From positions 6,223 to 70,222 of the forward strand of contig JAQVMW010000008.1 in the NCBI GenBank assembly GCA_028703445.1: 64,000 nucleotides of DNA. Reading direction: 5' to 3'. The position numbers were made by a program, and so were the translations under genes. Shown here in pieces: positions 9,547 to 51,302 of the stretch. Each line of letters starts with the position of its first letter. Positions within the stretch are counted from its first letter, which is position 1. The DNA comes from Candidatus Peribacteraceae bacterium. Its GTDB lineage: Bacteria; Patescibacteriota; Gracilibacteria; Peribacterales; Peribacteraceae. Under the pieces are notes generated by a model. It was not told the origin of the DNA. It did not search any database and saw only the letters and a program-made list of their open reading frames with translations.

Positions 9547-9573
9547 AAAAGGGGCGGCGTGGCCGCCCCTTTT
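9547..9573. terminator. Bidirectional rho-independent terminator
   Basis: The sequence is aaaaggggcggc gtg gccgcccctttt, with an A-run on one side and a T-run on the other. It lies between convergent genes. Confidence 0.75.
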
Positions 9574-9582
9574 CGCAAAAGT

Positions 9583-12087
9583 CTAGAAAATCACTTTCCC
9601 CTCTTCCCGTACCGTCTGTTCATGAGAACTCACCACGCGGTCCTTCCCGACAGTCACGAGGGAATCCCCGATACGTACGATCCGCTCGATATCCTTGCCG
9701 TAGAGGGAGCTCCCGGACTTCAGGATGTCATCCTCGCCGTAGTGCGTGATCGTGCCTCGGAGCTTGAGGCCGCTCTGCAGATCCACATCATAGACATAGG
9801 CACCCTGGAACGTCGTCTCGCCGTACGCGGGAAAATCCCACGAACCCTGTTCCTTCTGCGCAACAGAGACCTCTGTCACCTGCACCGGGAAGGCGAGCAG
9901 ATTGCGCTCGCGATCGAAGAGCAGCGCTTTGTGGTTCTGGAGGAGCGGGCTATCGGTGCCGCGGTCTCCGATGACCACCTTGCTCATCTCGACGGGATTA
10001 TTGGGGTCCGTGACGTCGAAGAGCGCGACTTTCATGCCCTGATACCAGGCGAAATTCCCCTCTTTGGCATCCTCCGCGTCCTTGCCGAAACCAAGAATAT
10101 GATTCTCGTCGTAGGGATGCAGGTAATCGCTGTAGCCCGGGATCTTGAGCTTTCCGACGATGCGGGGATTGCGGGGGTCACTCGTATCGATGACGAAGAA
10201 AGGATCGATCTTCTTGAAGGTCACCATGTAGGTGCGGTCTCCCACGAAGCGCACGGAGTAGATCTGCTCGCCGGGAGCGATATCTTCGATCGCCCCCACG
10301 CGCTCCATGTCGAGATTCAGGACATACAGGTTATTCGTGGACGGACGAGAGGAATCCCACGACTGACCCTGCGTCGTCGAAACGCGGAAGGACTGTTCGT
10401 GCTCATCCATCGAGAACTGGTTGAGAATATGGCCGGGCACGGTTCCCTTCGCCCTGAACGAAACACCATCATCCGTGAGTGTGAAACGATAGAGGTGCGT
10501 CTGTTCTTCGGAGCTACCGATGCCCCCACGCCAGAAGTACGACCACTCGGTGGCGGCGACGTAGAGATTCTCAGTCGAGACAAACAGGTTCTGCGCGGAA
10601 CCGACGACGACCTCTTTCTTCACCTCTGCCGTTTGGCTCGCAAGCGGCACAACGGCCACGATCAGGTATTCGGGCCGTGGCGTGTGCGGCAGGATGGTCA
10701 CATCGGCGCACTTCGAAACGGGCAAATCGCTCTCGCCCCCTGCGGAATCCGTGTACGTGGGCAGCACGTTCTCCTCGCGGTACAGCGGCATCGGTCCGAC
10801 CCACGTGAATCCCTGGTTCATAACGAGATACATTTTGTCCCCGATTCTCCGGCTCGAGACCAGTGACCCGTCAAACGACAGCTCCCGCCTCAGTTTTGGA
10901 TTGGCGCGATCGGACACATCGTAGATGCGCACCTGCGTGCGCTGCCGGCCGTAGGGATAATAATCCGGTGCGATCTTCTGCATGATGCGGTAGGGTTGCT
11001 CTTTCCACGTGGATCCTGTCACCACCAGACGGTCTCCATCCAGATAGAGTTCGGAGGGCGAGAACGACGAATCATGGAGATCGATCATGCTCACAATCTG
11101 CATTTCGGAAGCAGGCGTGGCCCGGATGATGCGGACGATATCGTCCTGAACGGCATAGATATACGTCCCATCCGTCTTGACGATGTCGGATTCATCAACG
11201 CCCTCGACCTGCACGTTTGTCTGTGAGAAATTGCCTGTTCCGCCTCCTCCGCCCGTCAGCACCGTCTCGGACTTCGCCTGTGGGGCCATAGTCCCCGTCG
11301 GAGCGATCATATCGAACATCTTGCCGCGTTCACCCCACGTTCCCGTCTGCTGCGACTCCTCCGCGAATACGGCCAGATCGGCGCAACTCTTGGCCACCTG
11401 TGGCTGCTCCGAAGAAAGGTTGATCGCAAGGGATGGATATTTCACGTTCAGGAATGCCTGTGTGGGCTGGTCGGTGACCCCTTCCGTGAGGCGCCACATC
11501 ATCTCAGCCATTTCCCCGCGCGTGACGGCGTTCGTCAGCGCCCCCACGGAAGGAGGAATAGCTTTGGAACTCTCGAGTGCCCGCGCGTACCCCGCGTACC
11601 ACTCGCCACTGGACTCAACCTGCTGGTCGTACGCCAGCGAAAGGATTTTGGCCGCTTCCACGAAGTTGATGGTTTGCTCGGGCTTGAACGTGCCGTCGGG
11701 GTACCCGTCGACGATCCCCTCCTCCTTGGCCATACAGACGTACGGCGCGAACCACTCGTCCTCTACGTCGGGGAAACAGTTGCTGCCCTCTGCAGTCTTG
11801 CCGCGACTCTCGAGAATGATCTTCAAAAACTCGGCGCGGTTGACTGTTTGAGACGGCCGGAAAGTGCCGTCGCTGTACCCTTCGATAATTCCATGCGCCT
11901 TGAGAGACTCGATGGCGGCGGCGTAGGGTGTGATCCCCGGCCGCACGTCCTGAAAGACGAGCGCGAGGGAGGTGGACGGCACGCTCACAAGGAACATTGC
12001 ACCGATGAGAGTGGAAGAAAAGACAGTGCGGAGTGCGCGCATAGAAATGATGGAAAGGAATCGCAAGTTTAGCACAAAGTTGCTCAA
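9583..12087 (-). CDS. Secreted SLH-domain protein with a C-terminal beta-propeller domain (COG4880/Beta_propel type)
   Basis: It has an N-terminal signal/TM segment and two SLH-like repeats (FQDVRPG...GYSDGTFRP; FPDVEDEW...GYPDGTFKP). It also carries the hallmark IYSVRFVGDRTYMVTFKKIDPFFVIDTSDPRNPRIVGKLKIPGYSDYLHPYDENHILGFG. Confidence 0.85.
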   Translation of the reverse strand: MSNFVLNLRFLSIISMRALRTVFSSTLIGAMFLVSVPSTSLALVFQDVRPGITPYAAAIESLKAHGIIEGYSDGTFRPSQTVNRAEFLKIILESRGKTAEGSNCFPDVEDEWFAPYVCMAKEEGIVDGYPDGTFKPEQTINFVEAAKILSLAYDQQVESSGEWYAGYARALESSKAIPPSVGALTNAVTRGEMAEMMWRLTEGVTDQPTQAFLNVKYPSLAINLSSEQPQVAKSCADLAVFAEESQQTGTWGERGKMFDMIAPTGTMAPQAKSETVLTGGGGGTGNFSQTNVQVEGVDESDIVKTDGTYIYAVQDDIVRIIRATPASEMQIVSMIDLHDSSFSPSELYLDGDRLVVTGSTWKEQPYRIMQKIAPDYYPYGRQRTQVRIYDVSDRANPKLRRELSFDGSLVSSRRIGDKMYLVMNQGFTWVGPMPLYREENVLPTYTDSAGGESDLPVSKCADVTILPHTPRPEYLIVAVVPLASQTAEVKKEVVVGSAQNLFVSTENLYVAATEWSYFWRGGIGSSEEQTHLYRFTLTDDGVSFRAKGTVPGHILNQFSMDEHEQSFRVSTTQGQSWDSSRPSTNNLYVLNLDMERVGAIEDIAPGEQIYSVRFVGDRTYMVTFKKIDPFFVIDTSDPRNPRIVGKLKIPGYSDYLHPYDENHILGFGKDAEDAKEGNFAWYQGMKVALFDVTDPNNPVEMSKVVIGDRGTDSPLLQNHKALLFDRERNLLAFPVQVTEVSVAQKEQGSWDFPAYGETTFQGAYVYDVDLQSGLKLRGTITHYGEDDILKSGSSLYGKDIERIVRIGDSLVTVGKDRVVSSHEQTVREEGKVIF

Positions 12088-15182: not shown

Positions 15183-15968
15183 ATGTATCAATACTCCTCC
15201 GACGTGATTCCAGCACCATCCTCATCCTCCGGTCTTCACATCGCCATCATCCCCGACGGTAACCGCCGCTGGGCTCGGTCGCGCGCCTGGTATCCCTGGC
15301 AGGGCCACGAAAAGGCGATCAAGAACTTCCGCACGATCACCGACTGGTGCCAGGCCGATCCGCGCATCGCCGTGGTCACGGTCTGGTGCTTCTCGACTGA
15401 GAATTGGAAACGCGACCCGCAGGAAATCACGAAACTCATGAAGCTTCTGGAGAATTACCTTGAGAAAGAGCGACCCACATTCCAGAAGAAAGAGATCCGC
15501 CTGCTCCATTCGGGACGCAAAGACCGCATCCCCGCTTCCCTCTCGTCATTGATTCAGACCATTGAGGAAGAGACGAAACACTTCTCCGATTTCACCCTGC
15601 ACATTGCCCTCGATTACGGCGGCAAAGATGAAATCCTCCGAGCATGCTACCGTTCCCAACAAGCCAACCCTTCGACTTCGCTCAGGGCAGGCAAGCCAAC
15701 AACCGAACAAGCCAACAACCGAACAAGCCAACCAGCACACACGCACGATCAGGATTTCCTTCGTGCCTTCCTCGATCATCCCGAACTTCCGGACATCGAT
15801 CTCATCATCCGCACTTCCGGCGAGCAGCGGACGAGTAATTTCTTCCTCTGGCAGAGTACGTACGCCGAGTGGGTCTTTTTGGATACGTTCTTTCCGGACT
15901 TCACGACGGATGATCTAAAAAATGCCGTGGACGGCTTCGCGAAGCGTTCCCGACGATTCGGAGGATGA
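15183..15968 (+). CDS. uppS: Undecaprenyl/isoprenyl diphosphate synthase (cis-prenyltransferase) with a low-complexity insert
   Basis: It carries HIAIIPDGNRRWAR, DYGGKDEI and DLIIRTSGEQRTSNFFLWQSTYAEW. Residues encoded by 15654-15752 are repeat-derived. Confidence 0.9.
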   Translation: MYQYSSDVIPAPSSSSGLHIAIIPDGNRRWARSRAWYPWQGHEKAIKNFRTITDWCQADPRIAVVTVWCFSTENWKRDPQEITKLMKLLENYLEKERPTFQKKEIRLLHSGRKDRIPASLSSLIQTIEEETKHFSDFTLHIALDYGGKDEILRACYRSQQANPSTSLRAGKPTTEQANNRTSQPAHTHDQDFLRAFLDHPELPDIDLIIRTSGEQRTSNFFLWQSTYAEWVFLDTFFPDFTTDDLKNAVDGFAKRSRRFGG

Positions 15969-16089: not shown

Positions 16090-16260
16090 ATGAAGCACAC
16101 CGCCGTCGCACACGGCAAAATCATTCTCACCGGCGAATATGCTTTCGTGAAAGGCAAACCTACGGTTTTCCTTCCACGGACCATCCTTTCCCTCTATGGT
16201 ATCGCTCCAGCGCGGGAACCCGCGAGACCCGCGCTTCGCGATGGCTACTTTCATTTATGA
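16090..16260 (+). pseudogene. 57-codon ORF carrying only a mevalonate-kinase/GHMP N-terminal motif, followed by REP-like sequence
   Basis: MKHTAVAHGKIILTGEYAFVKGKP compares with the mvk N-terminus MKYSSVAHGKIILTGEYAVVFGHP. The nucleotides differ at many synonymous sites. A degenerate REP (ccagcgcgggaa...cccgcg) lies at 16207-16240. The stop overlaps the mvk ATG (ATGA). Confidence 0.5.
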
Positions 16261-18890: not shown

Positions 18891-18896
18891 AAAACT

Positions 18897-18924
18897 GCAG
18901 CGGAAGATCGCGATCTTCCGCTGC
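18897..18924. repeat. 28-bp perfect palindrome gcagcggaagaTCGCGAtcttccgctgc (family also at 41702 and 49612)
   Basis: The sequence is self-complementary. It lies between the mvaD stop and the HMG-CoA reductase start. Confidence 0.8.
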
Positions 18925-18944
18925 GGAAAGATTACAATGGCCCT

Positions 18945-20216
18945 ATGGATCTCCGTTCCCTTCCTGCCGGCCTGAATCCTGAAGAGCACTGCCGCGAACG
19001 GCGGGCGCGGGTCGAGAACGAAACAGTAACGGACCTTTCGCTCCTCCACACCGATGCCGGACGAATCGGTCAGGCCGACGAGAAGAATTGCGAGCAGATG
19101 ATCGGCTCTGTTCCCCTCCCCGTCGGCATCGCCGGTCCGCTCGCGATTACCTTCAGCTCCGGCGAAAAATCCAACGTCTTCCTTCCTCTTGCCACAACCG
19201 AGGCGGCACTTGTCGCGAGCGTCAATCGCGGATGCAAAGTTCTGTCGACAAGCGGAGGCGTTTCGATAAAATCCGTCTACCATGGCATGTCCCGATCGCT
19301 AGTATTCAAGCCAAAAAACAAGAAAGGACAAACGTTCACCTCCGCAATCAAAACTCTGGAACAAGAATGGAAACGTATCGGCGAGGCGACGAGCGCACAT
19401 CTCAAAATTCTCCGTTACGATCTCGATGAGTCCGACGGCTACACCTTCCTCACGATCTTCTGCGACACCTCGGAGGCCATGGGCATGAACATGACGACGA
19501 TCGCCGCACAAGCCATCGGCAATTTCCTTGCTCAAGAGCTTGATGCCGATCTCATCACCATTGCGGCAAACGTCGACAGCGACAAGAAGCCGAGCAGCCG
19601 CACGCACGACCGCGGCCGGGGATACGAAGTCACCGCGAAAGCGGATATTCCTTCTTCGATCATCGCGAATGTGTTGAAGACGACACCGCAGCAGTTGTGC
19701 GCCGTCGCGGACGCCAAGTTGCGCGTCGGATCCGCACTCGCAGGAGCCATCGGAAGTAATTTGCATGTGGCCAACGTGATCGCGGCTCTGTACCTGGCAA
19801 CGGGACAGGACGGCGCACACGTGGTGGAAGGATCGCTGGCGGATACGAAAATCGTGCCTTTGTGGACCTCTCCCCCACCTCCATCTCCTCCCCCGGTGGG
19901 GGAGGAGCGTCCCTTGATCCCCCTTCCCCCTCCGGGGGAAGGGTTGGGGATGGGGAAGAAACTTGCAGGCATACGAATAGAAGTCCGCCTGCCCGCCCTC
20001 CTCGTCGGCGTTCGCGGCGGCGGAACGGCTCTGCCTGCCCAAAATCAGTGCCTTTCGCTCATCTTAAAACCGCAACGCGGGATGCTTCCCGCGCTGCGGC
20101 GACCGCAGCAACTCGCGGAAACGATCGGCGCGGCCGTCCTCGCCGGGGAATTGAGTCTGCTCGCGGCACAGGCGACACAAACGCTTGCGTCTTCGCACAA
20201 AAAACTGGCACGGTGA
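18945..20216 (+). CDS. hmgA: HMG-CoA reductase, class I type, with an in-frame repeat-derived insertion
   Basis: It carries ENCIG-like EKNCEQMIGSVPLPVGIAGPL, EAALVASVNRGCK, SEAMGMNM, LVGVRGGGT and AVLAGELSL. Confidence 0.9.
   Translation: MDLRSLPAGLNPEEHCRERRARVENETVTDLSLLHTDAGRIGQADEKNCEQMIGSVPLPVGIAGPLAITFSSGEKSNVFLPLATTEAALVASVNRGCKVLSTSGGVSIKSVYHGMSRSLVFKPKNKKGQTFTSAIKTLEQEWKRIGEATSAHLKILRYDLDESDGYTFLTIFCDTSEAMGMNMTTIAAQAIGNFLAQELDADLITIAANVDSDKKPSSRTHDRGRGYEVTAKADIPSSIIANVLKTTPQQLCAVADAKLRVGSALAGAIGSNLHVANVIAALYLATGQDGAHVVEGSLADTKIVPLWTSPPPPSPPPVGEERPLIPLPPPGEGLGMGKKLAGIRIEVRLPALLVGVRGGGTALPAQNQCLSLILKPQRGMLPALRRPQQLAETIGAAVLAGELSLLAAQATQTLASSHKKLAR
19885..19943 (+). repeat. Two tandem C/T-rich-stem hairpins (CCCCTTCCYC-N5-GRGGAAGGGG family) inside the hmgA coding sequence
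   Basis: The first is ctcctcccc cggtg ggggaggag (19885-19907). The second is cccttcccc ctccg ggggaaggg (19921-19943). Relatives lie at 24932-24956, 32098-32120, 32159-32183, 39496-39547 and 39942-39979. Confidence 0.75.
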
Positions 20217-20296
20217 GAGTGAGAGTGGTTCTATTGCGAGATAGAACGGGTAAAATGGCTTTTTTAAGAGCAAAAAACGTCATGAGCGCAAACATT

Positions 20297-20817
20297 CCAG
20301 CGCGGGAAGCTTCCCGCGCTGGAATAGGACAGGAATGATAGATACCCATGACCCAGCGGCACCCTATTCAGAACGGACAGATGATGCTCGTAACAACGAA
20401 CACATGTAACCGCATGCGAATCTTCGTGGATTCCGCTTGCGCACGTCAAGTCATCGAAAGCCTGTACCGTGCACAATTGCATCATCCATTCTTTCTCCAT
20501 GGATTTGTCGTCATGCCGGATCACTGCCACATACTGCTCCATATTCCGGAAAACGGTTCCATCTCAAAAATCATGTATTGCTTCAAGCGATCTGTGTGCT
20601 TTGAGGTGGGAAAACCGATCTGGCAACGACGATTCCATGTCCGTCTTGTCGACAATGCATGGGAAGCTTTGCGTTACATCCACCTGAATCCAGTACGGCA
20701 AGGCATCTGCGAAGCGCCAGCAGATTATCCATGGTCATCCGCTTCTGGACGATGGGATGTCACTGATCTTTCAGAATGGTAATACAACCCAGCGCACGAA
20801 GCTTCGTGCGCTGGGTT
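20297..20817 (+). mobile_element. REP - RAYT - REP unit (REPtron-like)
   Basis: The Y1 transposase gene is flanked by GC-rich palindromes with an AAGCTT core. These lie at 20297-20322 (ccagcgcgggaagcttcccgcgctgg) and 20786-20817 (aacccagcgcacgaagcttcgtgcgctgggtt). Confidence 0.7.
20348..20782 (+). CDS. REP-associated tyrosine transposase (RAYT; IS200/IS605 Y1 HUH family)
   Basis: It has the HUH motif in VVMPDHCHILLH and the catalytic Tyr context ALRYIHLNPVRQG. The 144 aa length fits. Confidence 0.8.
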   Translation: MTQRHPIQNGQMMLVTTNTCNRMRIFVDSACARQVIESLYRAQLHHPFFLHGFVVMPDHCHILLHIPENGSISKIMYCFKRSVCFEVGKPIWQRRFHVRLVDNAWEALRYIHLNPVRQGICEAPADYPWSSASGRWDVTDLSEW

Positions 20818-20836
20818 TCTATGGCATACTGGCTAC

Positions 20837-22540
20837 GTGCAGTCCACCTGCAGAAATCCCTGGTGCTCTCAACCCTTCGAAGTCACCAAAGATGACCTCG
20901 CGTTCTACGACAAGGTCAGTCCCATCCTCAATGGGGGAAAATACACTATCCCCCCTCCGACACAGTGTCCCACATGCAGGAGACAGAGGAGACTTGTCTG
21001 GCACAATATCATGAACTTTCATAAGAGAAATTGTGACAGAACCGGAAGAGAAATTCTTTCAAACATCTCACCGGATAAGCCGCTCACAGTGTATGACATC
21101 AACGCGTGGTGGGAGGATTCTTGGGATCAGCATGAAGCAGGTCTTCCTCTTGATTTTCAAAAGACATTTTTCGAACAATTTGCAGAATTGCTTCTGGGAG
21201 CTCCGATACCCAGTCTGCATGCGCAACCATCCACGGACGAGAACTGCACGTACACGAACTACGCGTTATTCAATAAGAACTGCTATTTGATATTCCATGC
21301 AAACGGCAATGAGGATTGCCTGTATGGCTTTGGCGTGAAGTTCAGCAAGAACGCGGTTGATGTATTGAATTCATTCGATTCGGAAATACAGTACGAATGC
21401 ATCGATTGTGAGAAATGTTACAACTTGTACTCCTGCAAGGATTGCGAGAACTGCGCCGACTCGCTGTTCCTCGATGACTGCATCGGATGCAAGAACTGCA
21501 TCGCCTGTCACAACCTCCGCAACGCGGAGTTTTGCATTTTCAATAAGAAAACCTCCAAGCAAGAATTTGAAAAGCTGCGCGCGGCAATCCTGAACGGCTC
21601 GCATGCAACACGCGAGGAATGGAGGAAAGAATTCGAAAGCTTCCTGCTCCAAATGCCCCGACGCGCCACAATGATCCGGCAATGCGAAAATTGTTCGGGC
21701 GATCACCTGTACCGTTGTCAGAACGTTCACGAAAGCTATGACATAAAGGATGTACGGGATGGAAAATTCTTAGACAGAATATTCAATGGGCCAAATAGTG
21801 ATTTGTATGATGTCTACCAATTCGGTGTTAAAGCGGAGATGTGCTACGAGTGCTCGGTGGTGGGCATCAATGCGAACAACGTGTGCTTCAGTGCACTGTG
21901 CAGGAACGAAGTGAGTGACATCCTCTACAGCTTCTTCTGTCAGACATGCAAGCACTGCTTTGGCTGCGTGGGGCTCCACAATCAGGAATACTGCATCCTC
22001 AACAAGCAGTATTCAAAGGAGGACTACGAAACACTTGTGCCGAAGATTATCGAACACATGCAGCAAACCGGCGAATGGGGCGAGTTCTTTCCTGCCGAGC
22101 TGTCACCATTCTCGTACAACGAAACGATCGCACAGGAGCACTTTCCCATGACGCAACGAGAGATTGAGATGCGGGGATGGGAGTGGCGCGACCGGACGGA
22201 TGAGATCCCCAAAGTGAAGAAAACCATCCCAGCCGAAAAACTCCCCGACAACATTGCGGATATCCCCGACGACGTCATTCACTGGGCAATTGAGTGTGAG
22301 ATAACCAAACGACCCTTCCGGGTTACCAAGCAGGAATTGGCATTCTACCGCACAATGAGGCTGCCGGTTCCGCACCTGCATCCCGATGAGCGACACAAGC
22401 GGCGCACAGCAATGAGGAATCCCCGCAGGATCTGGAAGCGCCAGTGCGCAAAGTGCAACAAGCCGATCGAAACCACCTACTCGCCCGAACGACCAGAAAT
22501 TGTGTATTGCGAGGAATGTTATCTGAGGGAAGTGTATTGA
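20837..22540 (+). CDS. Cys-rich family paralog P1 (function unknown)
   Basis: It is 567 aa with 36 Cys by my count and has no signal peptide. The N-terminus is CRNPWCSQPFEVTKDDLAFY...CPTCRRQRRL. The C-terminus is QCAKCNKPIETTYSPERPEIVYCEECYLREVY. It starts at GTG. Confidence 0.9.
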   Translation: MQSTCRNPWCSQPFEVTKDDLAFYDKVSPILNGGKYTIPPPTQCPTCRRQRRLVWHNIMNFHKRNCDRTGREILSNISPDKPLTVYDINAWWEDSWDQHEAGLPLDFQKTFFEQFAELLLGAPIPSLHAQPSTDENCTYTNYALFNKNCYLIFHANGNEDCLYGFGVKFSKNAVDVLNSFDSEIQYECIDCEKCYNLYSCKDCENCADSLFLDDCIGCKNCIACHNLRNAEFCIFNKKTSKQEFEKLRAAILNGSHATREEWRKEFESFLLQMPRRATMIRQCENCSGDHLYRCQNVHESYDIKDVRDGKFLDRIFNGPNSDLYDVYQFGVKAEMCYECSVVGINANNVCFSALCRNEVSDILYSFFCQTCKHCFGCVGLHNQEYCILNKQYSKEDYETLVPKIIEHMQQTGEWGEFFPAELSPFSYNETIAQEHFPMTQREIEMRGWEWRDRTDEIPKVKKTIPAEKLPDNIADIPDDVIHWAIECEITKRPFRVTKQELAFYRTMRLPVPHLHPDERHKRRTAMRNPRRIWKRQCAKCNKPIETTYSPERPEIVYCEECYLREVY

Positions 22541-22545
22541 ACGAT

Positions 22546-22573
22546 CCTAGCGCACGAAGCTTCGTGCGCTAGG
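22546..22573. repeat. REP palindrome cctagcgcacgaagcttcgtgcgctagg
   Basis: It has the same 22-nt core as the copy at 20786-20817. It lies 6 nt after the P1 stop. Confidence 0.8.
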
Positions 22574-22640
22574 GATGCATTCCGAATACTGCTTACTTTT
22601 CGCAACACGCGAACCTACACAGGTATACTCACTTCATCCA

Positions 22641-24856: not shown

Positions 24857-25007
24857 ATAATGCGATTGAACAACACCTTCAATCTCCGGCTCCTTCGCTA
24901 TTACCAACTGCCTCTGTTCGATTCCATGTCTCCTCTCCACCCGGAGGGGGGAGAGGGTAGGGTGAGGGGGCAAAAGACAAGAAAAGCATCATCTATTCCC
25001 CAAAACC

Positions 25008-31747: not shown

Positions 31748-32097
31748 GCGAAGGAGGATCTTCCCACTCATCCCTATGTTCCAAGACGACGATGACAACA
31801 ACGGTAAGAAACCGGCTCCCCCGCCCGAGCCTCCGTTCCCCGAGGAAGACGACAGCAATCTGGGAGATGACTTCACGAAAGTAGGCGAAGGCAAAGATCT
31901 CACGAATGACCAGCAATGATGGAAAGGGTACATCTGCCTGCTCATCGAAGAGGCTGGAGGCAAGTTCCGCACCGAGCTCATGGATCCCAAAAACCCCCGT
32001 GGCGGCGTGCGCTGCGTCGCTGCGACGCAACCGATCTTCGAGGAGTTGTGCCAATTTGTGTTTAAGGAATGAGTTTGAAACAAACCCCTCCCCCTTC

Positions 32098-32183
32098 CCC
32101 CCTCTCCACAAGAGAGGGGGAACGCATGTTATTTTGTCGCACTACTAAAAAAGACGCTCCCCTTCCTCTCGTGGAGGAAGGGG
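32098..32183. repeat. Two C/T-rich-stem hairpins immediately downstream of maf
   Basis: The first is ccccctctc cacaa gagaggggg (32098-32120). The second is ccccttcctc tcgtg gaggaagggg (32159-32183). The second abuts the maf stop codon. Confidence 0.7.
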
Positions 32184-37138: not shown

Positions 37139-37183
37139 CCCTAACCCTAACCCTAATCCCTAACCCTAATCCCTAACCCTAAA
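37139..37183 (-). repeat. Telomere-like tract; on the transcribed (minus) strand it reads (TTAGGG/ATTAGGG)x7
   Basis: The plus strand reads ccctaaccctaaccctaatccctaaccctaatccctaaccctaaat. The TAG stop of the upstream gene is part of the first TTAGGG unit. Confidence 0.8.
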
Positions 37184-39422
37184 TAATCGGCTCTTCGAAC
37201 TTCTCCTCAATAGACGAAATCTCATCCTCCTCTGGAGGCGCTGCAGCCGCTTCATCCCACTTCTTGAGCATCTCCTCCACGTTCTTCTTCGGCTGGCAGT
37301 ACTTCTTGCGCGAGAGGGCGATGATCTCTTGCGTGTGGTCATCCTTGGGCTTCGGTACATCGACCGTGCGACCTGAAAAGGCCTCGCGAATCTCGCCCTT
37401 CACCGACATCTTCACGTAGAACTCGCGCACACCCAGGTTGATGATGTCACGTTCCTTGAAGATCGGCTCGTACTCCTTCTCGAGCACAACAGCATCCTCC
37501 GCGCCCACGCGGAAACTGATCATGGAACCCACGTTGCCGAAGACCGTCTGCCGGATCCGCGAAGAGAGCTGCCCCATGTACTGGTGGGCAATGGTGAGAT
37601 TGAGATGGTACTTGCGGGCCTCGGAGAGAATCTCGTAGAACGTATCGGTCGCGAAGTTCTGGAACTCATCGACGTAGAAGTAGAAGTCCGACCGCTTCTC
37701 CTCCTCTACGCTCGCCCGACTCATCGCCGCCTGATACATCTTCGTGATGATCATGGAACCGAGGAGTGACGAGTTTTCCTCTCCGAGGAGACCTTTGGAA
37801 ACCTTCATGAGCAGAATTTTCTTGTTATCCATGACATCACGGATGTCGAACCGTGTCGTGGGCTGGCCGATGATGTTGCGGATCATGTTCGTGGCCACGA
37901 ACTGGCCGACTTTGTTGAGGAGCGGCGTGATGGCCTCGGCATCGAACTTTTCGCTCCACGCGGCGAATTCCGAAACCCAGAAGCTCTTCACGACGTTATC
38001 CTGAATGCGCGCCACGATCTTCTGACGGTAGTTCTTGTCATTGAGCATCTTTAAGATAGAGAGCACCGTGGTATTTGGGCTGTCGAGGAGCGCCAACGTG
38101 GTGTAGCGGAGAACGTGCTCAAGACGATACGACCAGTTGTCCCCGAAGAGCTTTTTAAAGATATCAAGGAACCCGATGGTAAGCTGCATCTTGTAGGCCT
38201 CATCCACCTTCGCGAGCGGGTTGAAAGCGATGGGGAACTCCGTGTCCCCCGGATCGAAGAGGATTACGTCGTTGATACGGCTCTTCGGCACGTGCCGGAG
38301 CACGCAGTCGACCAGATCCCCGTGCGGATCGAGCACCGCCACTCCCCTGCCACACTCCAAATCCTCTTTAATGAGGAGCTCCAGGAGCTTTGACTTTCCC
38401 ACACCGGACTTCCCCACCACGTACAGGTGGCGCCGGCGATCCTCCAGGCGCACGCCGAACTTCACGAAATTGTTGTGGTAGTTCGTGATGCCGAACGTGC
38501 TCACCTCCTTCTCGCCGGCACGCGGCAGATCCTGCGGAGGATCTGATTTGCGCGCGAGCACGTGGACGATGTGGTGCACGTAGTCCGCATTCGGCAGATG
38601 GTAGAGCGTGGCGACCTCCGTCGCGCTCAGAATGTATGTGCTCGCATGCCATCGCTCACGGTACCGACGGAGGAATGACGCCACATTCATGTCTTTGGAG
38701 GAGACAAACCCGTTGATATCCGAATCATTGAAATGGTAGAAGCTGTTCTTCACTGCTTCGAGCTTGCGGCTGGCTTCCTCATCACTCTTGCTCAAGTACG
38801 CGCAGCGGATGGATACCCTGAAAGGCTTCGTCTGCTCCTTCTGCCTGGCCGCCTCATAGCGGACGGACTGAATACCTTTGCGACCCTCCTTGCGCAACCG
38901 GTCGCGCACGGAGAAGTACTTCTTCAGGTTCGCGAACTTGAACCGCCAGCTCCGGCGGAAGTGGTAGAGAGCATCGTCGGCATGCGGCTCCACGATGATC
39001 TGCACCCAGACCTGCTCGCCGCTGTCGATCTTCGAGAGCACCGAGAAAAGGCGCGACATCGAGTCCTCTTCGAACTTGTCATACATCTTCACGGGATACA
39101 CGTCCCGCTCTTTGAGCGTGAGCTCGCACCCGGCAAGGTGGTGCTTCTCGGGATGCATCAGTTCCGTGTAATCCTTGGTTTCGCGGATCTCGGCGTCGGG
39201 GAAACTGGCGTAGATCAAACCTTCGATCGTCTCCTTGTACTTCTCATCCATGACCACATAGAAGTACGTGTACTGCTCGTAACCGAAGTACTCGAACGAA
39301 AACCGCTCCTCCGTGACGGTATTGCGAAGGCTCACGAGCAGATCCTGGAATTTGGACTCCAGTTTCCTGTTCTCCTTCTTCCCCTGGGGGACCACGATGT
39401 GGAGGTAACGGAGATTAGCCAT
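37179..39422 (-). CDS. TraD/VirD4-like (T4SS coupling-protein-type) P-loop ATPase
   Basis: It has the Walker A motif VVGKSGVGKSKL and the Walker B-like motif FYFYVDEFQNFAT. The N-terminal domain is typical of CPR 'T4SS DNA-binding domain' proteins. Confidence 0.65.
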   Translation of the reverse strand: MANLRYLHIVVPQGKKENRKLESKFQDLLVSLRNTVTEERFSFEYFGYEQYTYFYVVMDEKYKETIEGLIYASFPDAEIRETKDYTELMHPEKHHLAGCELTLKERDVYPVKMYDKFEEDSMSRLFSVLSKIDSGEQVWVQIIVEPHADDALYHFRRSWRFKFANLKKYFSVRDRLRKEGRKGIQSVRYEAARQKEQTKPFRVSIRCAYLSKSDEEASRKLEAVKNSFYHFNDSDINGFVSSKDMNVASFLRRYRERWHASTYILSATEVATLYHLPNADYVHHIVHVLARKSDPPQDLPRAGEKEVSTFGITNYHNNFVKFGVRLEDRRRHLYVVGKSGVGKSKLLELLIKEDLECGRGVAVLDPHGDLVDCVLRHVPKSRINDVILFDPGDTEFPIAFNPLAKVDEAYKMQLTIGFLDIFKKLFGDNWSYRLEHVLRYTTLALLDSPNTTVLSILKMLNDKNYRQKIVARIQDNVVKSFWVSEFAAWSEKFDAEAITPLLNKVGQFVATNMIRNIIGQPTTRFDIRDVMDNKKILLMKVSKGLLGEENSSLLGSMIITKMYQAAMSRASVEEEKRSDFYFYVDEFQNFATDTFYEILSEARKYHLNLTIAHQYMGQLSSRIRQTVFGNVGSMISFRVGAEDAVVLEKEYEPIFKERDIINLGVREFYVKMSVKGEIREAFSGRTVDVPKPKDDHTQEIIALSRKKYCQPKKNVEEMLKKWDEAAAAPPEEDEISSIEEKFEEPII

Positions 39423-39495
39423 TTAAGCCATATTCTTCAGTATTTTTGCTCTTTTGTAAATAGTTTTCGCAGCCTGCTGGAATTGCCCCACCCCC

Positions 39496-39547
39496 CTTCC
39501 CCCCTCCCCGCTCATCCCACGATGTTTCCTCCACGGGGAGGGGGAAG
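39496..39547. repeat. C-rich/G-rich hairpin (14-bp stem, 23-nt loop)
   Basis: cttcccccctccccg ... cggggagggggaag. Confidence 0.6.
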
Positions 39548-39585
39548 ATTGATCCGAGATACAAATAATCCTATCGCTACGCGCT

Positions 39586-40221
39586 ATGCATGAAGAAACG
39601 CACCGCCAGCAAAAACGGAGAAAGCTGCTCTACGCGATGAAGCTCCGCAGTAGAATGACGAAGGCAGAATCTTTGCTCTGGAACGCGCTACGCGGAAAGA
39701 AGTGTGACAGCATGAAGTTCCGTCGCCAGGTACCAATCAGTTGGTTTGTTGTTGATTTTCTGTGCGTCGAAAAACAGCTGATCATCGAACTCGATGGTCC
39801 GATTCATGAAAGGCAAAAATCGTATGATCATGAGCGGGAGAACGAGCTTCGAAGCCGGGGATACCGAATGATACGCTTCAAGAACGATCAAGTGCTTCAT
39901 GCATTGCCAACAGTGCTCAATGAAATACGCGATGCGGCTCTCCTCTCTCCCTACGGATGTCGGGATGGGGGGAGAGGGGCTGGGGGTGAGGAAAATTTCA
40001 ATAGACTTCCTTCAAATAGCACTCCTCACAATAGACGATCTCGGGTCGGTCGGGAGCGTACGTTGTCTGTATTTCTTTCTGGCATTTCATGCACGCTCTT
40101 TTCCAGAGCTTGCGGGGATTGCGGAGTGCAAGACGACGGTCGTAGCGTTCATCGGGGTGGAGACGCGGCACAGGAATCTTCTGTCGACGGTAGAAATCGA
40201 GCTCCTGCTTCAGAATCCTGA
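39586..40221 (+). CDS. DUF559 endonuclease-domain protein; the ORF runs on through a repeat and into the antisense of P2
   Basis: It carries ESLLWNALRGKK...FRRQVPISWFVVDFLCVEKQLIIELDGPIHE...RGYRMIRFKNDQVL. The recognisable domain ends near 39930. The rest is probably read-through. Confidence 0.6.
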   Translation: MHEETHRQQKRRKLLYAMKLRSRMTKAESLLWNALRGKKCDSMKFRRQVPISWFVVDFLCVEKQLIIELDGPIHERQKSYDHERENELRSRGYRMIRFKNDQVLHALPTVLNEIRDAALLSPYGCRDGGRGAGGEENFNRLPSNSTPHNRRSRVGRERTLSVFLSGISCTLFSRACGDCGVQDDGRSVHRGGDAAQESSVDGRNRAPASES

Positions 40222-41695
40222 AGGGACGGCCTGTTCTCTCGCAGAGAATCGCCCAATCCACGACGTCATCGTGAACATCCTCAATCCGATCAGGGAGCGT
40301 ATCTGCGGAAATGGTTTTGGAAACAGTCAGCTTCTTTTCCTCGATATCTCTCCAGTAGAAGCCCCGAGCTTGCGCTCCTTCCTTCGTGAGCGGCAAATAT
40401 TCGTACGCGAGTGATTCGTTGTACCCGAACGGTGAGAGAGACGGAGGAAAGTACAGGCCCCATTCCCCCGTCCCTTTCATGTGCTCGACGATGCGGGGCA
40501 CGAGCGATTCGTATTCCTCCTTCGTATACTGCACGTTGAAAACGCAGTACTGTTTGCGTTTCAGCCCCACGCACCCGAAGCAGTCCTTGCAGAAGTAACA
40601 GTACTCGCAGTAGAGAAGATCCCGGCAATGGAAGATGAAAAGACAGTACACGCAGTGATAGACCTCCAGCGTGCCGAGCGTGTCGTAGCAGAGCTCCGGT
40701 TTGATATACATGTTGGAACAGTCGTAGCAATCCTTCACTTGTACGCCGACGATGACGTTGCGGCAGTCCTGACTCTCATTCATGTCATAGCAGTCGATGC
40801 AATCTTTGGAATTCTCAATGAAATCACCCGTGCAGCGCTCGCTCGAAACGATATTTGCAGAGCGGTGAATCATCTTCGCAAAGAGCTGCATCCAGCGTTT
40901 CCGCATTGCCTCCGTGGCTGAAGCCGACCCCCGAAACTCCGCGATGCGGCGCTCGTACTCCTCTTTTGAAAGCGGTTCGTTGAGGAAGTAGTACTGCTTC
41001 TGCCGGAGATTGCTGCAGAGGCAACAGTTGCTGCAGCCGCTTAAATTCCAAGAAAAGGAACAGTCTCTGCAGTTCTGCGCAAAGGCGACGAAATCGAGTC
41101 CGTAGGACTTGAAGACGGAGAGGCACTCGTAGCAGAGCTCGCTATTGTAAAGGTACGAGCAATCCACGCTGTCCCGGGAACTCTGGAACAGTTTGCCGTA
41201 GTAGCATCGTTCGCAGTACTCGGATGAGTTGATGAGGTAGCAATCTTTGCAGTATCCCGTGCCGGCCGTATAGTCACAGTTCTCGTTGCCCATGAGCATG
41301 GATCCCAGGCGCGGGACCGCTTTGTGGAGCGCCGCAAACTGCGGGAAGAACGGTTGTGAGAAATCGTACGGACGACCGTGCTCGATGAAATCACGTCGGT
41401 CATCATTCCACTCGTCATGCGTGTACACGGCGTCTTTGGATCCCCAAAGGGGCTTCTCGTCATAGATGGAAATCATCTCTTTGCCGGTGAGCGTTGCCGT
41501 CCTGCGGTAGAAGTGCCATTCGTTCCTGTGGCATGTGCGAATTTTCAGCCGGCAGTCGGGGCAGTAGACGGGAAGCGGCAGATGGATCTTCGTCGCACCG
41601 AACGTGAATGTCATCTTGCGAAGAAACTCCTCCTCATCGGGATGGACATCGAAGGACTGCTTGCACCAAGGATTGCGGCAGGGAAGCTGCACCAT
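39998..41695 (-). CDS. Cys-rich family paralog P2
   Basis: It is 565 aa. The N-terminus is MVQLPCRNPWCKQSFDV. The C-terminus is ACMKCQKEIQTTYAPDRPEIVYCEECYLKEVY. Confidence 0.9.
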   Translation of the reverse strand: MVQLPCRNPWCKQSFDVHPDEEEFLRKMTFTFGATKIHLPLPVYCPDCRLKIRTCHRNEWHFYRRTATLTGKEMISIYDEKPLWGSKDAVYTHDEWNDDRRDFIEHGRPYDFSQPFFPQFAALHKAVPRLGSMLMGNENCDYTAGTGYCKDCYLINSSEYCERCYYGKLFQSSRDSVDCSYLYNSELCYECLSVFKSYGLDFVAFAQNCRDCSFSWNLSGCSNCCLCSNLRQKQYYFLNEPLSKEEYERRIAEFRGSASATEAMRKRWMQLFAKMIHRSANIVSSERCTGDFIENSKDCIDCYDMNESQDCRNVIVGVQVKDCYDCSNMYIKPELCYDTLGTLEVYHCVYCLFIFHCRDLLYCEYCYFCKDCFGCVGLKRKQYCVFNVQYTKEEYESLVPRIVEHMKGTGEWGLYFPPSLSPFGYNESLAYEYLPLTKEGAQARGFYWRDIEEKKLTVSKTISADTLPDRIEDVHDDVVDWAILCERTGRPFRILKQELDFYRRQKIPVPRLHPDERYDRRLALRNPRKLWKRACMKCQKEIQTTYAPDRPEIVYCEECYLKEVY

Positions 41696-41701
41696 TTTAT
41701 C

Positions 41702-41729
41702 GTAGCGGAAGATCGCGATCTTCCGCTAC
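41702..41729. repeat. 28-bp perfect palindrome gtagcggaagaTCGCGAtcttccgctac between P3 and P2
   Basis: It is identical to the copy at 49612-49639. Confidence 0.85.
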
Positions 41730-41739
41730 AGGACATGAC

Positions 41740-43389
41740 TCAATAGACCTCTTTCAAATAACACTCCTCGCAATAGATGATCTCGGGTCGGTCGGGAGCG
41801 TACGTTGTTTGCATTTCTTTACCGCACTTCATGCATTGCCGCTTCCAGAGACGGCGAGGATTGCGGCGCTGGATCCGCTCTAAGTGGCGCTCATCGAAAC
41901 ATAGGCGAGGCAGTGGCAGACAATGCTGACGATAGAGAGTAAGCTCCTGTGGAATGATCTTGTAGGGCTTACCCGTGCGCTCGCAGGTGAGGATCTTCTC
42001 CGTAATATCATCAGGCACATCTTTGATATCCAGGGGGAGTGAGAGGCGCGGTCCCTGGTAGGCGGATGTCTGGCTCTCCGAGTCCTCACGCCACTTCCAA
42101 CCACGCTTGGCCGCATCATTTTCCGTGAGCGGGAAGTACTCCTGCGCCACGGTCTCGTTGTAACCGAAGGGACTCAATTCCGGCGACAGCGGCTGGCCCC
42201 ACTCCCCCGTTTTCTTCATGTGCTCGACAATCTTCGCTTTCAGGCGCACGTACTCCTGTTCGGAGTACTGCTTGTTGAAGATGCAGAACCGCTGCTTTTT
42301 GAGTCCCGAACAGGCGAAGCAGTCCTCGCAGTATTGGCAGTGATCCAGGTACTGGGAATTCTTGGAATAGAAACTCACGAACGTGAACTGCGTGTTGTAC
42401 TGATTGATCGTAGAGATGGTTCCGTACGTCAGTTCACAGCGATCCACGACCACGTGCCCGTCATAGCAATCTTTCGACTTGAAGCTGAAGATCAGATAGC
42501 CGCAATCCTCCAGATCCGCGCTGTCGTAGCACTCCACACAATTCCTGCAGTGCACGATGTGGTCGCCCGTCACGTTCTCGTTGCCGTTGCCGTCGATGTA
42601 CTGGTGAATCTGCTGCTGCCCGGCCTTCCTGAGGAAGACGTCGCGGGCCGCCGAGAGCGTGCGAAAGTTGCCCGTGTTGAGCTCGCTGAGCTTCTTTGCA
42701 TACTCCTCCCTGGAATGCTGTTCGTTGAAGATGCAGTACTGCTTGTTCCGGAGACCGAAGCAGCCGAAACAGCTGTGACAACCCTTGCAGTCACTGAGGA
42801 AGAAACTGTCACGACAATTGTGCGACTTCTCGGAATGGGCGAGGTTGTAGGATTCCGAGCAATCCACACACTCGATGCAGAGCTCGCACTTAAAGCAGTT
42901 CAGGCACTCGATACAACTTAAGCAACTGTCGATGCCATAGGAGTACAGGCAGTCCTCATCGTGGTCGGAGACGAAGATCATATGGCAGTTCTTGTCCTGC
43001 TGCGCGCCGTTCGTGTAGTCGCTATTCACGTTGTTGGATGTGAAGACGGAAATCTTCGGCGTGGCCTTGATCAGGGCATCGAACTGCGGAAAAAACGGCT
43101 GACTGAAATCGAAGTCACGTCCGTGCTGCATCGCATCCCATTTGTCGGTGTACCACTCGTGCTGATCGTAAACGGTGTACGGACTGTCCGGCGCATAGAC
43201 GGAAATGATCTGCTTGCCCGTAAGGTCACACTTGCGATGGTAGAGTCGGCGCTCGTTGCGCCAGGCAAAGCGCCCTTGCCGTCGGCACGTGGGACAGAGT
43301 GTCGGGTCAGGCAGTGAAACCTTTGTGAGGAAAGCATGTTCCTGCGGCAGGACAGCGAAGGACGATCGGCAATGGGAGCAGGTGGGCAT
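41740..43389 (-). CDS. Cys-rich family paralog P3
   Basis: It is 549 aa. The N-terminus is MPTCSHCRSSFAVLPQEHAFL...CPTCRRQGRF. The C-terminus is QCMKCGKEMQTTYAPDRPEIIYCEECYLKEVY. Confidence 0.9.
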   Translation of the reverse strand: MPTCSHCRSSFAVLPQEHAFLTKVSLPDPTLCPTCRRQGRFAWRNERRLYHRKCDLTGKQIISVYAPDSPYTVYDQHEWYTDKWDAMQHGRDFDFSQPFFPQFDALIKATPKISVFTSNNVNSDYTNGAQQDKNCHMIFVSDHDEDCLYSYGIDSCLSCIECLNCFKCELCIECVDCSESYNLAHSEKSHNCRDSFFLSDCKGCHSCFGCFGLRNKQYCIFNEQHSREEYAKKLSELNTGNFRTLSAARDVFLRKAGQQQIHQYIDGNGNENVTGDHIVHCRNCVECYDSADLEDCGYLIFSFKSKDCYDGHVVVDRCELTYGTISTINQYNTQFTFVSFYSKNSQYLDHCQYCEDCFACSGLKKQRFCIFNKQYSEQEYVRLKAKIVEHMKKTGEWGQPLSPELSPFGYNETVAQEYFPLTENDAAKRGWKWREDSESQTSAYQGPRLSLPLDIKDVPDDITEKILTCERTGKPYKIIPQELTLYRQHCLPLPRLCFDERHLERIQRRNPRRLWKRQCMKCGKEMQTTYAPDRPEIIYCEECYLKEVY

Positions 43390-49605: not shown

Positions 49606-49611
49606 TCTATC

Positions 49612-49639
49612 GTAGCGGAAGATCGCGATCTTCCGCTAC
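49612..49639. repeat. 28-bp perfect palindrome gtagcggaagaTCGCGAtcttccgctac between P6 and P5
   Basis: It is identical to the copy at 41702-41729. Confidence 0.85.
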
Positions 49640-49649
49640 GGGACACGAC

Positions 49650-51302
49650 TCAATACACTTCTTTGAGATAACACGCTTCACAGAGGATTCTCCCGTCGTA
49701 CTCCTTGGGCCAGCTCGTTTGCGTTTCCGCTTTGCATTTGCCACAGATCACCGTCCGCAACGTCCCGTCGAAGGGAATCAGACGGAAATTCTCCTGCAGC
49801 CGGCGCATATAGTAGGTATACGGAAGCGGCACCTTGAGATCCTGCGCAAAAGCGACATCCTCCTTGAGAATCTGGAACGGGCGAGCGGCAACGGAATCCC
49901 AGTAGGGCGATGCGGTGACTGAATCGTCCGCCTGGTCACTGCGATCGGGAACTTCAGAGGCATCCCGTGTATCGGACTCACGCTTTTCTGCACTCTCGAG
50001 CATGCGAAATCCTCTCTTCTTCCCCTCAGTCGTCGTCATCTGCCAGACGAAACCTGCCAGACTCTCTTCGTAGGGATTTGCTGCAAAGTACGGCGGGAAA
50101 AATTGGCCGTATTCACCTGTCCTCTTCATCGTTTCGACGACTTCTGCCTTCTTTTTCTCATACGCCGCAGGTTCGAAAGCCTTATTGAAGATGTGATACT
50201 CCTTCCCCACAAGTCCGCAGCAGCCGAAGCAGTGCTTGCACTGGAAACACTGCGCGCAGTACTCCATGAACTTGCACTGGATCACGTTGTAGCCGAATTT
50301 TATGTCGTAACATTTGTCCTGCGGCTCTATCGAGCCGTACACGAGTTCCGATCCCACGGCGGCACACACGGTATCCAGACAATCCTTGCCGCCGAAGCCG
50401 CGAAATATGTTCATGCAGTCCTCCAGTTCGTCTACGAAGAAACAGTTCGTGCATCCCTTGCTGGAGTAGATGTAGTTGGACCCTCCACACTCCTGACACT
50501 GATCCATGAAAATGGCACGGTGCCAGGCGTTCTCTTTCAACATCTTCCTGAATTCCTGTTTGGCGTGCTCATACACGGTGCGCGACTGTAGATCCCATGC
50601 CGCAACACGCTGTTCATACTCCTCCTTCGTGAGTTGCTGATTGGCAAAACAGTAGGACTGGTTGCGCAGATTCGTGCAGAACATGCAGTGATTACAGTTT
50701 CGGCAGTCATAGAGGAACGCACTCTCCGTACATTGCCAGCAGTTTAAGGTGAACACGACGCGGAAACAGAGATGGCTGTTGATGAGATCAACGGAGCGCT
50801 CACTGTCGTACGAAAAGACACCGTACTGGCTGCTCTTCACGTTAAAGACCCGATAGCAGTAGCGGAGATCCTCGTCATTCAGCCCTGAGTGGCAGAGGTG
50901 GCAGTTCTTCGAGTACCACCAGTCATCGGTGTACTCGCAATTCTCGTTCCCCGCGCCCACATTGTGCGCGATGGGGCAGCGCCGGAAAAGCTCCCACATC
51001 TGTGGAAAGAGCTGCTTCGTGAGATCGATCTCGGCCGCAGGCGGATCGGCGTGCTTGATCCACTCGTCCTTGTGCCAGACGGGATAGGGACAGTCCTCGG
51101 AGAAGACGGAAACAATCGGCTTCCCCGTCTTGTCACACTTCCTCTTGTGGAGCGCCCAGTGCTGCCAGAAGGCACCGAGGATCTGCCAGCGTGCGATGGG
51201 ATGAAGATCTGGCTCGCCCTCAATGCCAAGCTTCTTGCGCAACTCCATCTCGGCAGAAGTCACGGTGAAGGTGAGGCCGGTGACGGGGCAGGTCTTGGAC
51301 AT
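49650..51302 (-). CDS. Cys-rich family paralog P6 (divergent termini)
   Basis: It is 550 aa. The N-terminal Cys pairs are lost (MSKTCPVTGLTFTVTSAEMEL). The C-terminus is ICGKCKAETQTSWPKEYDGRILCEACYLKEVY. The central region is conserved. Confidence 0.85.
   Translation of the reverse strand: MSKTCPVTGLTFTVTSAEMELRKKLGIEGEPDLHPIARWQILGAFWQHWALHKRKCDKTGKPIVSVFSEDCPYPVWHKDEWIKHADPPAAEIDLTKQLFPQMWELFRRCPIAHNVGAGNENCEYTDDWWYSKNCHLCHSGLNDEDLRYCYRVFNVKSSQYGVFSYDSERSVDLINSHLCFRVVFTLNCWQCTESAFLYDCRNCNHCMFCTNLRNQSYCFANQQLTKEEYEQRVAAWDLQSRTVYEHAKQEFRKMLKENAWHRAIFMDQCQECGGSNYIYSSKGCTNCFFVDELEDCMNIFRGFGGKDCLDTVCAAVGSELVYGSIEPQDKCYDIKFGYNVIQCKFMEYCAQCFQCKHCFGCCGLVGKEYHIFNKAFEPAAYEKKKAEVVETMKRTGEYGQFFPPYFAANPYEESLAGFVWQMTTTEGKKRGFRMLESAEKRESDTRDASEVPDRSDQADDSVTASPYWDSVAARPFQILKEDVAFAQDLKVPLPYTYYMRRLQENFRLIPFDGTLRTVICGKCKAETQTSWPKEYDGRILCEACYLKEVY

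Follow-up and report, generated by a model that had tools for sequence, protein, structure and literature searches.

Positions 20228-20817 of a 64,000-nt stretch of contig JAQVMW010000008.1, referred to here in its entirety as the window, are probably a REPtron. The window comes from a Candidatus Peribacteraceae bacterium of the candidate phyla radiation (CPR). The proposed unit is made up of a gene encoding a REP-associated tyrosine transposase (RAYT), a conserved leader of ~120 nt, and a repetitive extragenic palindromic (REP) hairpin on each side. It appears to have landed between the genes encoding HMG-CoA reductase (HMGR) and HMG-CoA synthase (HMGS) in a cluster of mevalonate pathway genes, where a neighbouring gene encoding a Cys-rich protein, P1, is likely to be a separate resident of the same junction.

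The gene at 20348-20782 (plus strand) is intact and encodes a protein of 144 aa. Its sequence identifies the product as a RAYT of the Y1/HUH type because the protein passes the NCBIfam equivalog model for REP-associated tyrosine transposases (NF047646, 98.1 bits against a cut-off of 80) and its top match in the Protein Data Bank (PDB) is the E. coli TnpA-REP structure 4ER8 (E=1.5e-16, using a profile of 25 homologues). The protein also matches Pfam Y1_Tnp (E=7.8e-9), and with the IS200 model NF033573 it scores 22.2 bits, under the cut-off of 55. In the alignment with 4ER8 the PDHCH segment lies opposite PEHMH and RYIHLNPV lies opposite DYIYINPV. The HUH residues H59 and H61 (in PDHCH) and the tyrosine Y110 (in RYIHLNPV) are unchanged in 25 of 25 homologues. 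An earlier note on this DNA had called the gene a RAYT, and the family model, the PDB match and the presence of both motifs confirm the assignment. More than 200 homologues of ~145 aa were found, with 52-67% identity among the 120 matches listed, and those with a named source are almost all from Peribacteria or Peregrinibacteria, a CPR lineage. The 144-aa protein also occurs on contig JAQUKZ010000001.1 of GCA_028718825.1. The window holds a single RAYT gene; several metagenome-assembled genomes (MAGs) hold two to four divergent copies, each with its own hairpins, and these paralogues are 52-67% identical to the window protein.

Our own palindrome scan and folding located two perfect 32-nt palindromes beside the gene, and these are referred to as family A. 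The upstream copy (ATTCCAGCGCGGGAAGCTTCCCGCGCTGGAAT, GG/CC variant) spans 20294-20325, with its 3' end 22 nt ahead of the RAYT ATG and its 5' end 78 nt past the HMGR stop codon, and the downstream copy (AC/GT variant) spans 20786-20817, 4 nt past the RAYT stop codon. A third perfect copy of 28 nt (AC/GT variant, 22546-22573) lies 6 nt past the stop codon of P1 and ahead of HMGS. All three are centred on AAGCTT. The earlier note had correctly described perfect palindromes with this core, including the downstream 32-mer; the upstream copy, which it gave as a 26-mer, is a 32-mer as well. The 22-nt core AGCGCACGAAGCTTCGTGCGCT occurs exactly twice in the window (20791-20812 and 22549-22570), and shuffled sequences are expected to yield 0.01 matches even when three mismatches are allowed; the statement that the core recurs and that P1 (20837-22540) stands between two copies holds. 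As single-stranded DNA the three perfect copies fold with -15.4 to -18.7 kcal/mol (z = -5.4 to -6.8).

Scanning and folding also recovered two imperfect relatives of family A. The first lies within the HMGR coding sequence at 20070-20099 (plus strand; the earlier note had recognized it with an end at 20097), where it is in frame and encodes QRGMLPAL. Its stem has 13 positions, one of them mismatched, and closes a loop of 4 nt; read directly, it agrees with the first copy at 22 of 24 core positions. This copy lengthens the protein by 4 aa compared with more distant homologues, and it is kept in the related loci L087 (from a sister strain), L089 and L176. The second, at 16207-16240, is degenerate as had been proposed, with 12 of 12 positions of the left arm CCAGCGCGGGAA present, followed by a 9-nt insert and then the right arm CCCGCGCT. 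It lies beside a remnant duplication of the 5' end of the mevalonate kinase gene (16090-16256), the first 36 nt of which are identical to the start of the L087 gene; the degenerate REP follows the duplicate, and the real mevalonate kinase start is at 16257. A fall in identity to L087 from ~95% to 81% exactly there identifies this region as a recombination joint.

The evidence that the flanking palindromes belong to the RAYT comes from a survey of 80 loci fetched around RAYT homologues, 76 of which were used in an interval test with 780 random intervals of equal size from the same loci as the control. The hairpins that usually flank these genes are short and GC, with a 6-8-bp stem and a 4-6-nt loop. 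The upstream hairpin ends 19-23 nt ahead of the ATG, and the downstream hairpin, in most cases its reverse complement, lies 5-120 nt past the stop codon. Hairpins are present on both sides at 79% of the 76 loci as compared with 6% of the random intervals, and a matching pair is present at 46% of the loci and at 0/780 of the random intervals. The consensus of the flanking unit is (A/G)GA-stem-loop-stem-GG, forward upstream and inverted downstream. Palindromes of at least 11 bp are rare beside RAYT homologues, and the pattern becomes visible only when hairpins of 6-8 bp are searched for. Tandem clusters of hairpins adjoin the RAYT in some relatives. Additionally, hairpin sequence tracks the RAYT clades (Mantel-type test, r=-0.15, reached in 2 of 5000 permutations). 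The window RAYT clusters with homologues that have the hairpins GCGCGATGCTTCGCGC or GCGCCATGCTTGGCGC (ATGCTT/AAGCAT loops), to which the window hairpin GCGCGGGAAGCTTCCCGCGC, with its AAGCTT centre, is similar, and the ATGCTT loop is kept in the copy within HMGR. Since flanking hairpins occur family-wide and are absent from the random intervals, it is well supported that the window palindromes are the cognate repeats of this RAYT, and both the matching pairs and the covariation favour the earlier proposal to that effect. In the window lineage the loop and flanks have turned symmetric, giving a perfect palindrome that is the same on both strands and free of orientation.

Copies of the family were also found away from the gene. 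A metagenome scan with AGCGCNNGAAGCTTCNNGCGCT returned 97 stretches. On unrelated contigs of high GC, most matches lack compensatory bases at the NN positions. The Peribacter-like matches (GC 0.52-0.57, CCAGCGC flanks) are perfect palindromes except for one with a single mismatch (L145 5855), and among the variants GG/CC, AC/GT and AG/CT both arms change together in all of these matches but one. The metagenome of the sister strain (L087) contains eight copies of the exact pattern on three contigs with a total of 274 kb, and five of these are away from the RAYT. The 44 relatives in which the flanking pair is clear add five copies at distances above 700 nt from the RAYT (in 570 kb), compared with 0.5 for arm-shuffled controls. 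The repeat families thus seem to be real but low-copy, on the order of ten per genome per family. REPIN-like doublets (paired REPs), which the earlier note had raised, were not seen: all copies in the window and at the metagenome loci are singlets.

A second family of perfect palindromes, family B, has the form (C)GTAGCGGAAGATCGCGATCTTCCGCTAC(G), with a core written GATCGCGATC / AGCGGAAGATCGCGATCTTCCGCT and a length of 28-32 nt, and it occupies three sites in the window. The copy with the GATCGCGATC core at 18895-18926 lies a few bases past the stop codon of diphosphomevalonate decarboxylase and is found only in the window among five related strains. The other two lie in an array of P1 paralogs: 41702-41729 is 11 nt past the stop codon of the paralog at 41740-43389, and 49611-49640 is 10 nt past that of the paralog at 49650-51302 (both genes on the minus strand). 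At the 49611 site the sister strain holds a family-A variant where the window holds family B. At the 41702 site a family-A variant of the sister strain (L145 5855) stands behind the same paralog in a rearranged context, and the window has an extra paralog and other inserted DNA. The segment 39471-41739 of the window is extra relative to the sister strain and contains an open reading frame (ORF) resembling a DUF559 endonuclease (start at 39586) between poly-G/C hairpins, a paralog at 39998-41695 and the family-B palindrome; the sister strain has only the family-A palindrome in its place. Other intergenic slots contain entirely different hairpin elements from strain to strain.

The positions of these copies bring up the view that the palindromes are ordinary RNA hairpins at gene ends (terminators or stabilisers) that were spread by duplication, with the RAYT as an unrelated neighbour. 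The window palindromes start 4-11 nt past stop codons, with the RAYT-upstream copy as the one exception, and the metagenome copies lie 3-16 nt past stops, often between convergent genes or tandem P1-family genes. The replacement of one hairpin element by another in the same intergenic slots of sister strains also speaks for this view, as does the persistence of the palindromes in L087, in which the RAYT is a pseudogene. However, the upstream copy is not directly behind a gene, and its distance from the RAYT start is the one typical of the family; matching pairs flank RAYT homologues in unrelated contexts and co-vary with the RAYT clades; and copies are found in frame within genes. No copy in the window is followed by a T-run on the coding strand (the copy at 18897-18924 has one on the opposite strand), although classical terminators exist in this genome, e.g. 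at 9547-9573. A scan for promoters and terminators gave sites no more numerous than in shuffles. We consider it rather improbable that the palindromes are gene-end hairpins and nothing else. It is nonetheless most likely, judging from position, that the REP copies past stop codons function as RNA hairpins at 3' ends or as hairpins that insulate one gene from the next.

The leader of the RAYT unit begins with an inverted repeat of 20 nt, GTTC-N12-GAAC (20228-20247), located ~100 nt upstream of the RAYT start. The same repeat is found in the same place (about -118 to -98 from the ATG) at 47 of the 79 RAYT loci counted (loci L002-L081); it never occurs downstream of the RAYT and is at background frequency elsewhere. 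It is followed by a T-run, a short hairpin of GGCTT type, an A-run, the REP, and a TAGAAT-like box 7-9 nt before the ATG. Sequence conservation ends immediately to the left of GTTC, so that the left boundary of the inherited unit probably lies at this repeat, which may serve as an operator or as a site at which the end is recognized. The start codons of HMGR, HMGS and the RAYT are each preceded, at a distance of 4-11 nt, by a box resembling a -10 element (TACAAT, TATACT and GATAGAT, at about 18932-18944, 22624-22640 and 20333-20347). These boxes are conserved in relatives and suggest leaderless mRNAs with one promoter per gene.

A leader that travels with its gene would also be expected of an IS200-like insertion sequence that is autonomous and continues to transpose as one block, as opposed to a domesticated RAYT that mobilizes only its repeats. 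The unit resembles the IS200/IS605 elements in its Y1 HUH transposase of similar size and in the subterminal hairpins on both sides. Homologues occur in differing contexts between genomes, the MAGs with two to four divergent copies could reflect movement of such a block, and a RAYT of another clade is found at the same junction in the distant locus L040. Nevertheless, the protein is far under the cut-off of the IS200 model and passes the RAYT model, there is no tnpB, no identical or near-identical copies were seen, and solitary repeats are scattered without the gene. Among the window, L087 and L176 the RAYT is as conserved as the neighbouring proteins or more so (the window RAYT is 95% identical to that of L087 and 89% identical to that of L176, as compared with 79-88% for the neighbours), which fits vertical inheritance of the RAYT within this group. 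An IS200-like element moving as a block is therefore unlikely, and we favour a REPtron that descends with its host lineage.

The gene order around the unit is NUDIX/IDI-like, UPP synthase, mevalonate kinase, diphosphomevalonate decarboxylase, HMGR (18945-20216), RAYT, P1, HMGS, thiolase, and an OB-fold/guanylate-kinase fusion, so that the RAYT and P1 together separate HMGR from HMGS and thiolase. Comparison with related strains determined that this junction is variable. In L090, HMGR is followed directly by HMGS and the junction is empty, in agreement with the earlier statement that the RAYT and P1 separate genes that are otherwise collinear. L087 and L176 have the arrangement of the window with the same three palindromes. 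L089 has the order HMGR-P1-RelB/YafQ-HMGS, with no RAYT and no family-A palindromes, and L040 has HMGR-RAYT-HMGS without P1. The L040 gene was considered as an orthologue of the window RAYT and rejected, as it falls in a different clade; it looks like an independent insertion for the same reason. The HMGR|HMGS junction is an insertion hotspot that repeatedly accepts insertions. The RelB/YafQ toxin-antitoxin pair in L089 lies at 11182-11741 of that locus, after P1, and the P1 gene there is flanked by short remnants that resemble the 3' ends of paralogs (CYLKKVYE, MKEVY*).

P1 (20837-22540, plus strand) is a Cys-rich protein of 567 aa. An ATG at the corresponding position in L087 and L089 supports the GTG at 20837 as its start. 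It belongs to a large family found only in Peregrinibacteria, with more than 7600 members that are all without a functional name. The AlphaFold2 model of P1 is confident (pLDDT 85, pTM 0.84), and a Foldseek search of the PDB with this model gave no match. Pfam and NCBIfam gave nothing beyond a weak match of the C-terminus to a zinc finger; hits from a PDB sequence search were dismissed as LIM-like zinc-finger noise. Members of the family (window 20837-22540 and 39998-60429; L082, L085 and L145) are Cys-rich proteins of ~560 aa that form arrays of at least ten genes, and the array in the window adjoins a VirD4/TrwB-like ATPase (37179-39422) and TrmB regulators. The alleles are strongly mosaic between strains.

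The earlier note had suggested that the bracketing REPs show how P1 or its family moved. If so, the RAYT would have moved P1 as cargo of a composite element with the palindromes at 20786 and 22546 as its ends, and the spread of this copy or of the family would be explained. The bracketing is exact, and the gene found between the two palindromes in L176 is only 52% identical to P1 while its ends are conserved. P1 has also relocated at some point, given that its closest non-syntenic relatives (81% and 60% identity) are inside arrays beside a VirD4/TrwB-like ATPase, where the array of the 81% relative contains TrmB-type regulators as does the window array. Another relative, P0123 (61%), adjoins a Y1_Tnp gene, and about half of the extragenic palindromes are behind P1-family genes. 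This explanation is largely refuted by L089, in which P1 (97.7% nucleotide identity to the window) occupies the same junction in the absence of the RAYT and of family-A palindromes. In addition, such palindromes are missing from the array in which the 81% relative lies, and in the window a palindrome is behind only 3 of 11 P1-family genes. P1 is as distant from each array copy as these are from one another. With identities of 41-47% to nine array copies and 30% to the tenth, it is not a recent copy. We therefore regard movement of P1 as RAYT cargo as very improbable.

The patterns of identity within P1 point instead to exchange between alleles. Identity to the L089 gene rises to 99.2% over 20903-22480, and the outermost 66 nt at the 5' end and 60 nt at the 3' end contain 16 mismatches each. 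Compared with L087, identity is 71-83% in the N-terminal half and 99-100% in the C-terminal half. Because the tract shared with L089 is internal to the gene and both gene ends have diverged, these tracts result from homologous recombination between alleles already in place, or from conversion by paralogs, and are not footprints of transposition. The best reading of the palindrome behind P1 is that of an ordinary copy at a gene end, with no need for a special link to the RAYT, since other copies also sit just past stop codons, including those of two array paralogs, and it would not be the end of a composite transposon. P1 is thus probably a resident of the junction and not cargo of the RAYT.

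Several observations weigh against the interpretation of the unit as a REPtron with its own repeats. The copy number is low (the 64-kb window has eight copies from the two families together, and relatives have roughly one in every 100 kb), and the highly repeated character that is a hallmark of classical REPs was not seen in the contigs scanned. The unpaired 5' GT[AG]G guide is absent: in family A its place is taken by CCAG or CTAG, which pairs with the opposite end. The ends of family B are GTAG or GCAG, and these are paired too; the relatives have (A/G)GA on the 5' side and GG on the 3' side of the hairpin. RAYT subclasses with atypical repeats are on record (PMC6006769). No RAYT for family B is present in the 64-kb window. 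The palindromes at 20294-20325, 20786-20817 and 22546-22573 are all present in L087 and L176, where the upstream REP is identical in both (the downstream REP of L087 has a partial duplication of 10 nt, and the palindrome at 22546-22573 is absent in L089). Conservation between strains is high in all non-coding flanks of the unit, almost as high as in the palindromes, and the complete conservation of the palindromes was for this reason dropped as a sign of selection. The RAYT of L087 (9301-9732) has an in-frame TGA at codon 94, is otherwise 95% identical, and is not called as a gene. The three palindromes there are still perfect, which indicates that their short-term upkeep needs no active RAYT. 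One may speculate that hairpin-templated correction, or else selection for recognition on both strands, preserves the strict perfection.

By homology with E. coli TnpA-REP (PMC3479197, PMC6006769), the RAYT would bind the REP hairpin in single-stranded DNA and would cut and rejoin the DNA beside it through the HUH/Tyr site, and such events could have scattered copies in the genome. The REPtron would have landed at the HMGR|HMGS junction, and P1 belongs to a hypervariable paralog family that evolves by recombination. A more active role can also be imagined, in which peribacterial REPtrons are still active and self-contained. The leader would then let the RAYT regulate itself, with GTTC-N12-GAAC as the operator, the REP in the place of a -35 element and the TAGAAT-like box just before the ATG as the -10 element. 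In addition, the palindromes would insert in frame in housekeeping genes and act as recombination joints for the exchange, gain and loss of the Cys-rich paralogs. We see only a small likelihood that this fuller scheme is correct, and we prefer the REPtron with P1 as a separate resident.

The unit has features in common with several known systems. Like the E. coli REPtron (tnpA-REP/yafM with its REP/BIME repeats, where BIME stands for bacterial interspersed mosaic element), it has an enzyme of the same family with HUH and the Tyr in a YxxxNPV motif, its own inverted hairpin repeats on both sides, and solitary extragenic copies near the 3' ends of genes; the arrangement itself is an established one (PMC6006769). 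It differs in the lack of the unpaired GTAG guide, in perfect palindromes without orientation, in having far fewer copies, in the GTTC-N12-GAAC repeat ~100 nt upstream, in the size of the protein (144 as compared with 165 aa), and in its host, a CPR bacterium with a genome of ~1.2 Mb (Peribacteria genomes are ~1.25 Mb, PMC4736985). The REPIN-RAYT systems of Pseudomonas described by Bertels and Rainey (PMC3116915, PMC5581495) also have one RAYT per repeat family, several divergent RAYTs per genome with their own repeats, and mostly vertical descent within a lineage. Here, in contrast, the repeats are singlets with no REPINs seen, and there are tens of copies at most as opposed to hundreds. The window repeats are nearer to the low-abundance RAYT groups 1 and 4 (12-14 flanking 16-mers) than to groups 2 and 3 (PMC5581495).

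The copies within genes resemble the Rickettsia palindromic elements and intragenic REPs that are already known (PMC3733652), as palindromic copies lie in frame in housekeeping genes and are tolerated in surface loops. The inserts here are much shorter (22-30 nt, a net 2-4 residues) and belong to the same family as the repeats that flank the RAYT. Besides HMGR in the window, family-A copies were found in relatives inside genes resembling UvrC (L170, site 4162), FolD (L127, site 1027) and RluA (L109, site 1555), and these three are in frame and always read (E/Q)RGKLPAL. The UvrC-like gene of L170 has a large polypurine-hairpin insert as well.

Other hairpin elements were found in the coding sequences of the window. 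HMGR contains an in-frame insert of 99 nt at 19849-19985 (33 aa, ...PPPPSPPPVGEERPLIPLPPPGEGLGMGKK...) with two polypurine/polypyrimidine hairpins. The insert is present in L090 and absent in L087 and L089, and other HMGR homologues have different inserts at the same loop. Similar hairpins occur at 24932-24956, 32096-32183, 39480-39550 and 39940-39985. Rfam gave only sub-threshold miRNA-like matches, which were set aside as merely the long hairpin inside HMGR at 19867-19961. UPP synthase has an extra in-frame segment at 15647-15769 (261 aa as compared with 242 aa in L087) that encodes an ...STSLRAGKPTTEQANNRTSQ... stretch and reads FDFAQGR in another frame; this segment resembles an intergenic repeat element that is translated.

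Work on RAYT/REP systems has been confined almost entirely to Proteobacteria and a small number of other phyla. The literature searched on RAYTs and REPINs does not mention Patescibacteria or place a RAYT/REP system in CPR bacteria, and it contains nothing on palindromic elements in coding genes of CPR bacteria; the Peribacter genome paper mentions neither transposases nor palindromes. A REPtron thus seems not to have been described from CPR bacteria before. The new aspects are the host group, the orientation-free perfect palindromes without a GTAG guide, the low copy number and the conserved upstream element. A clade of ~145-aa RAYTs extends throughout the Peribacteria, and several MAGs have more than one divergent RAYT with hairpins of its own, so that the partnership of repeat and transposase persists even in very small genomes. 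The palindromes and the other hairpin elements account for the odd lengths of enzymes such as HMGR and UPP synthase, for operons that look split, and for the recombination mosaics between strains in the window, and the amplified Cys-rich family is reshuffled by homologous recombination and not carried by the RAYT.

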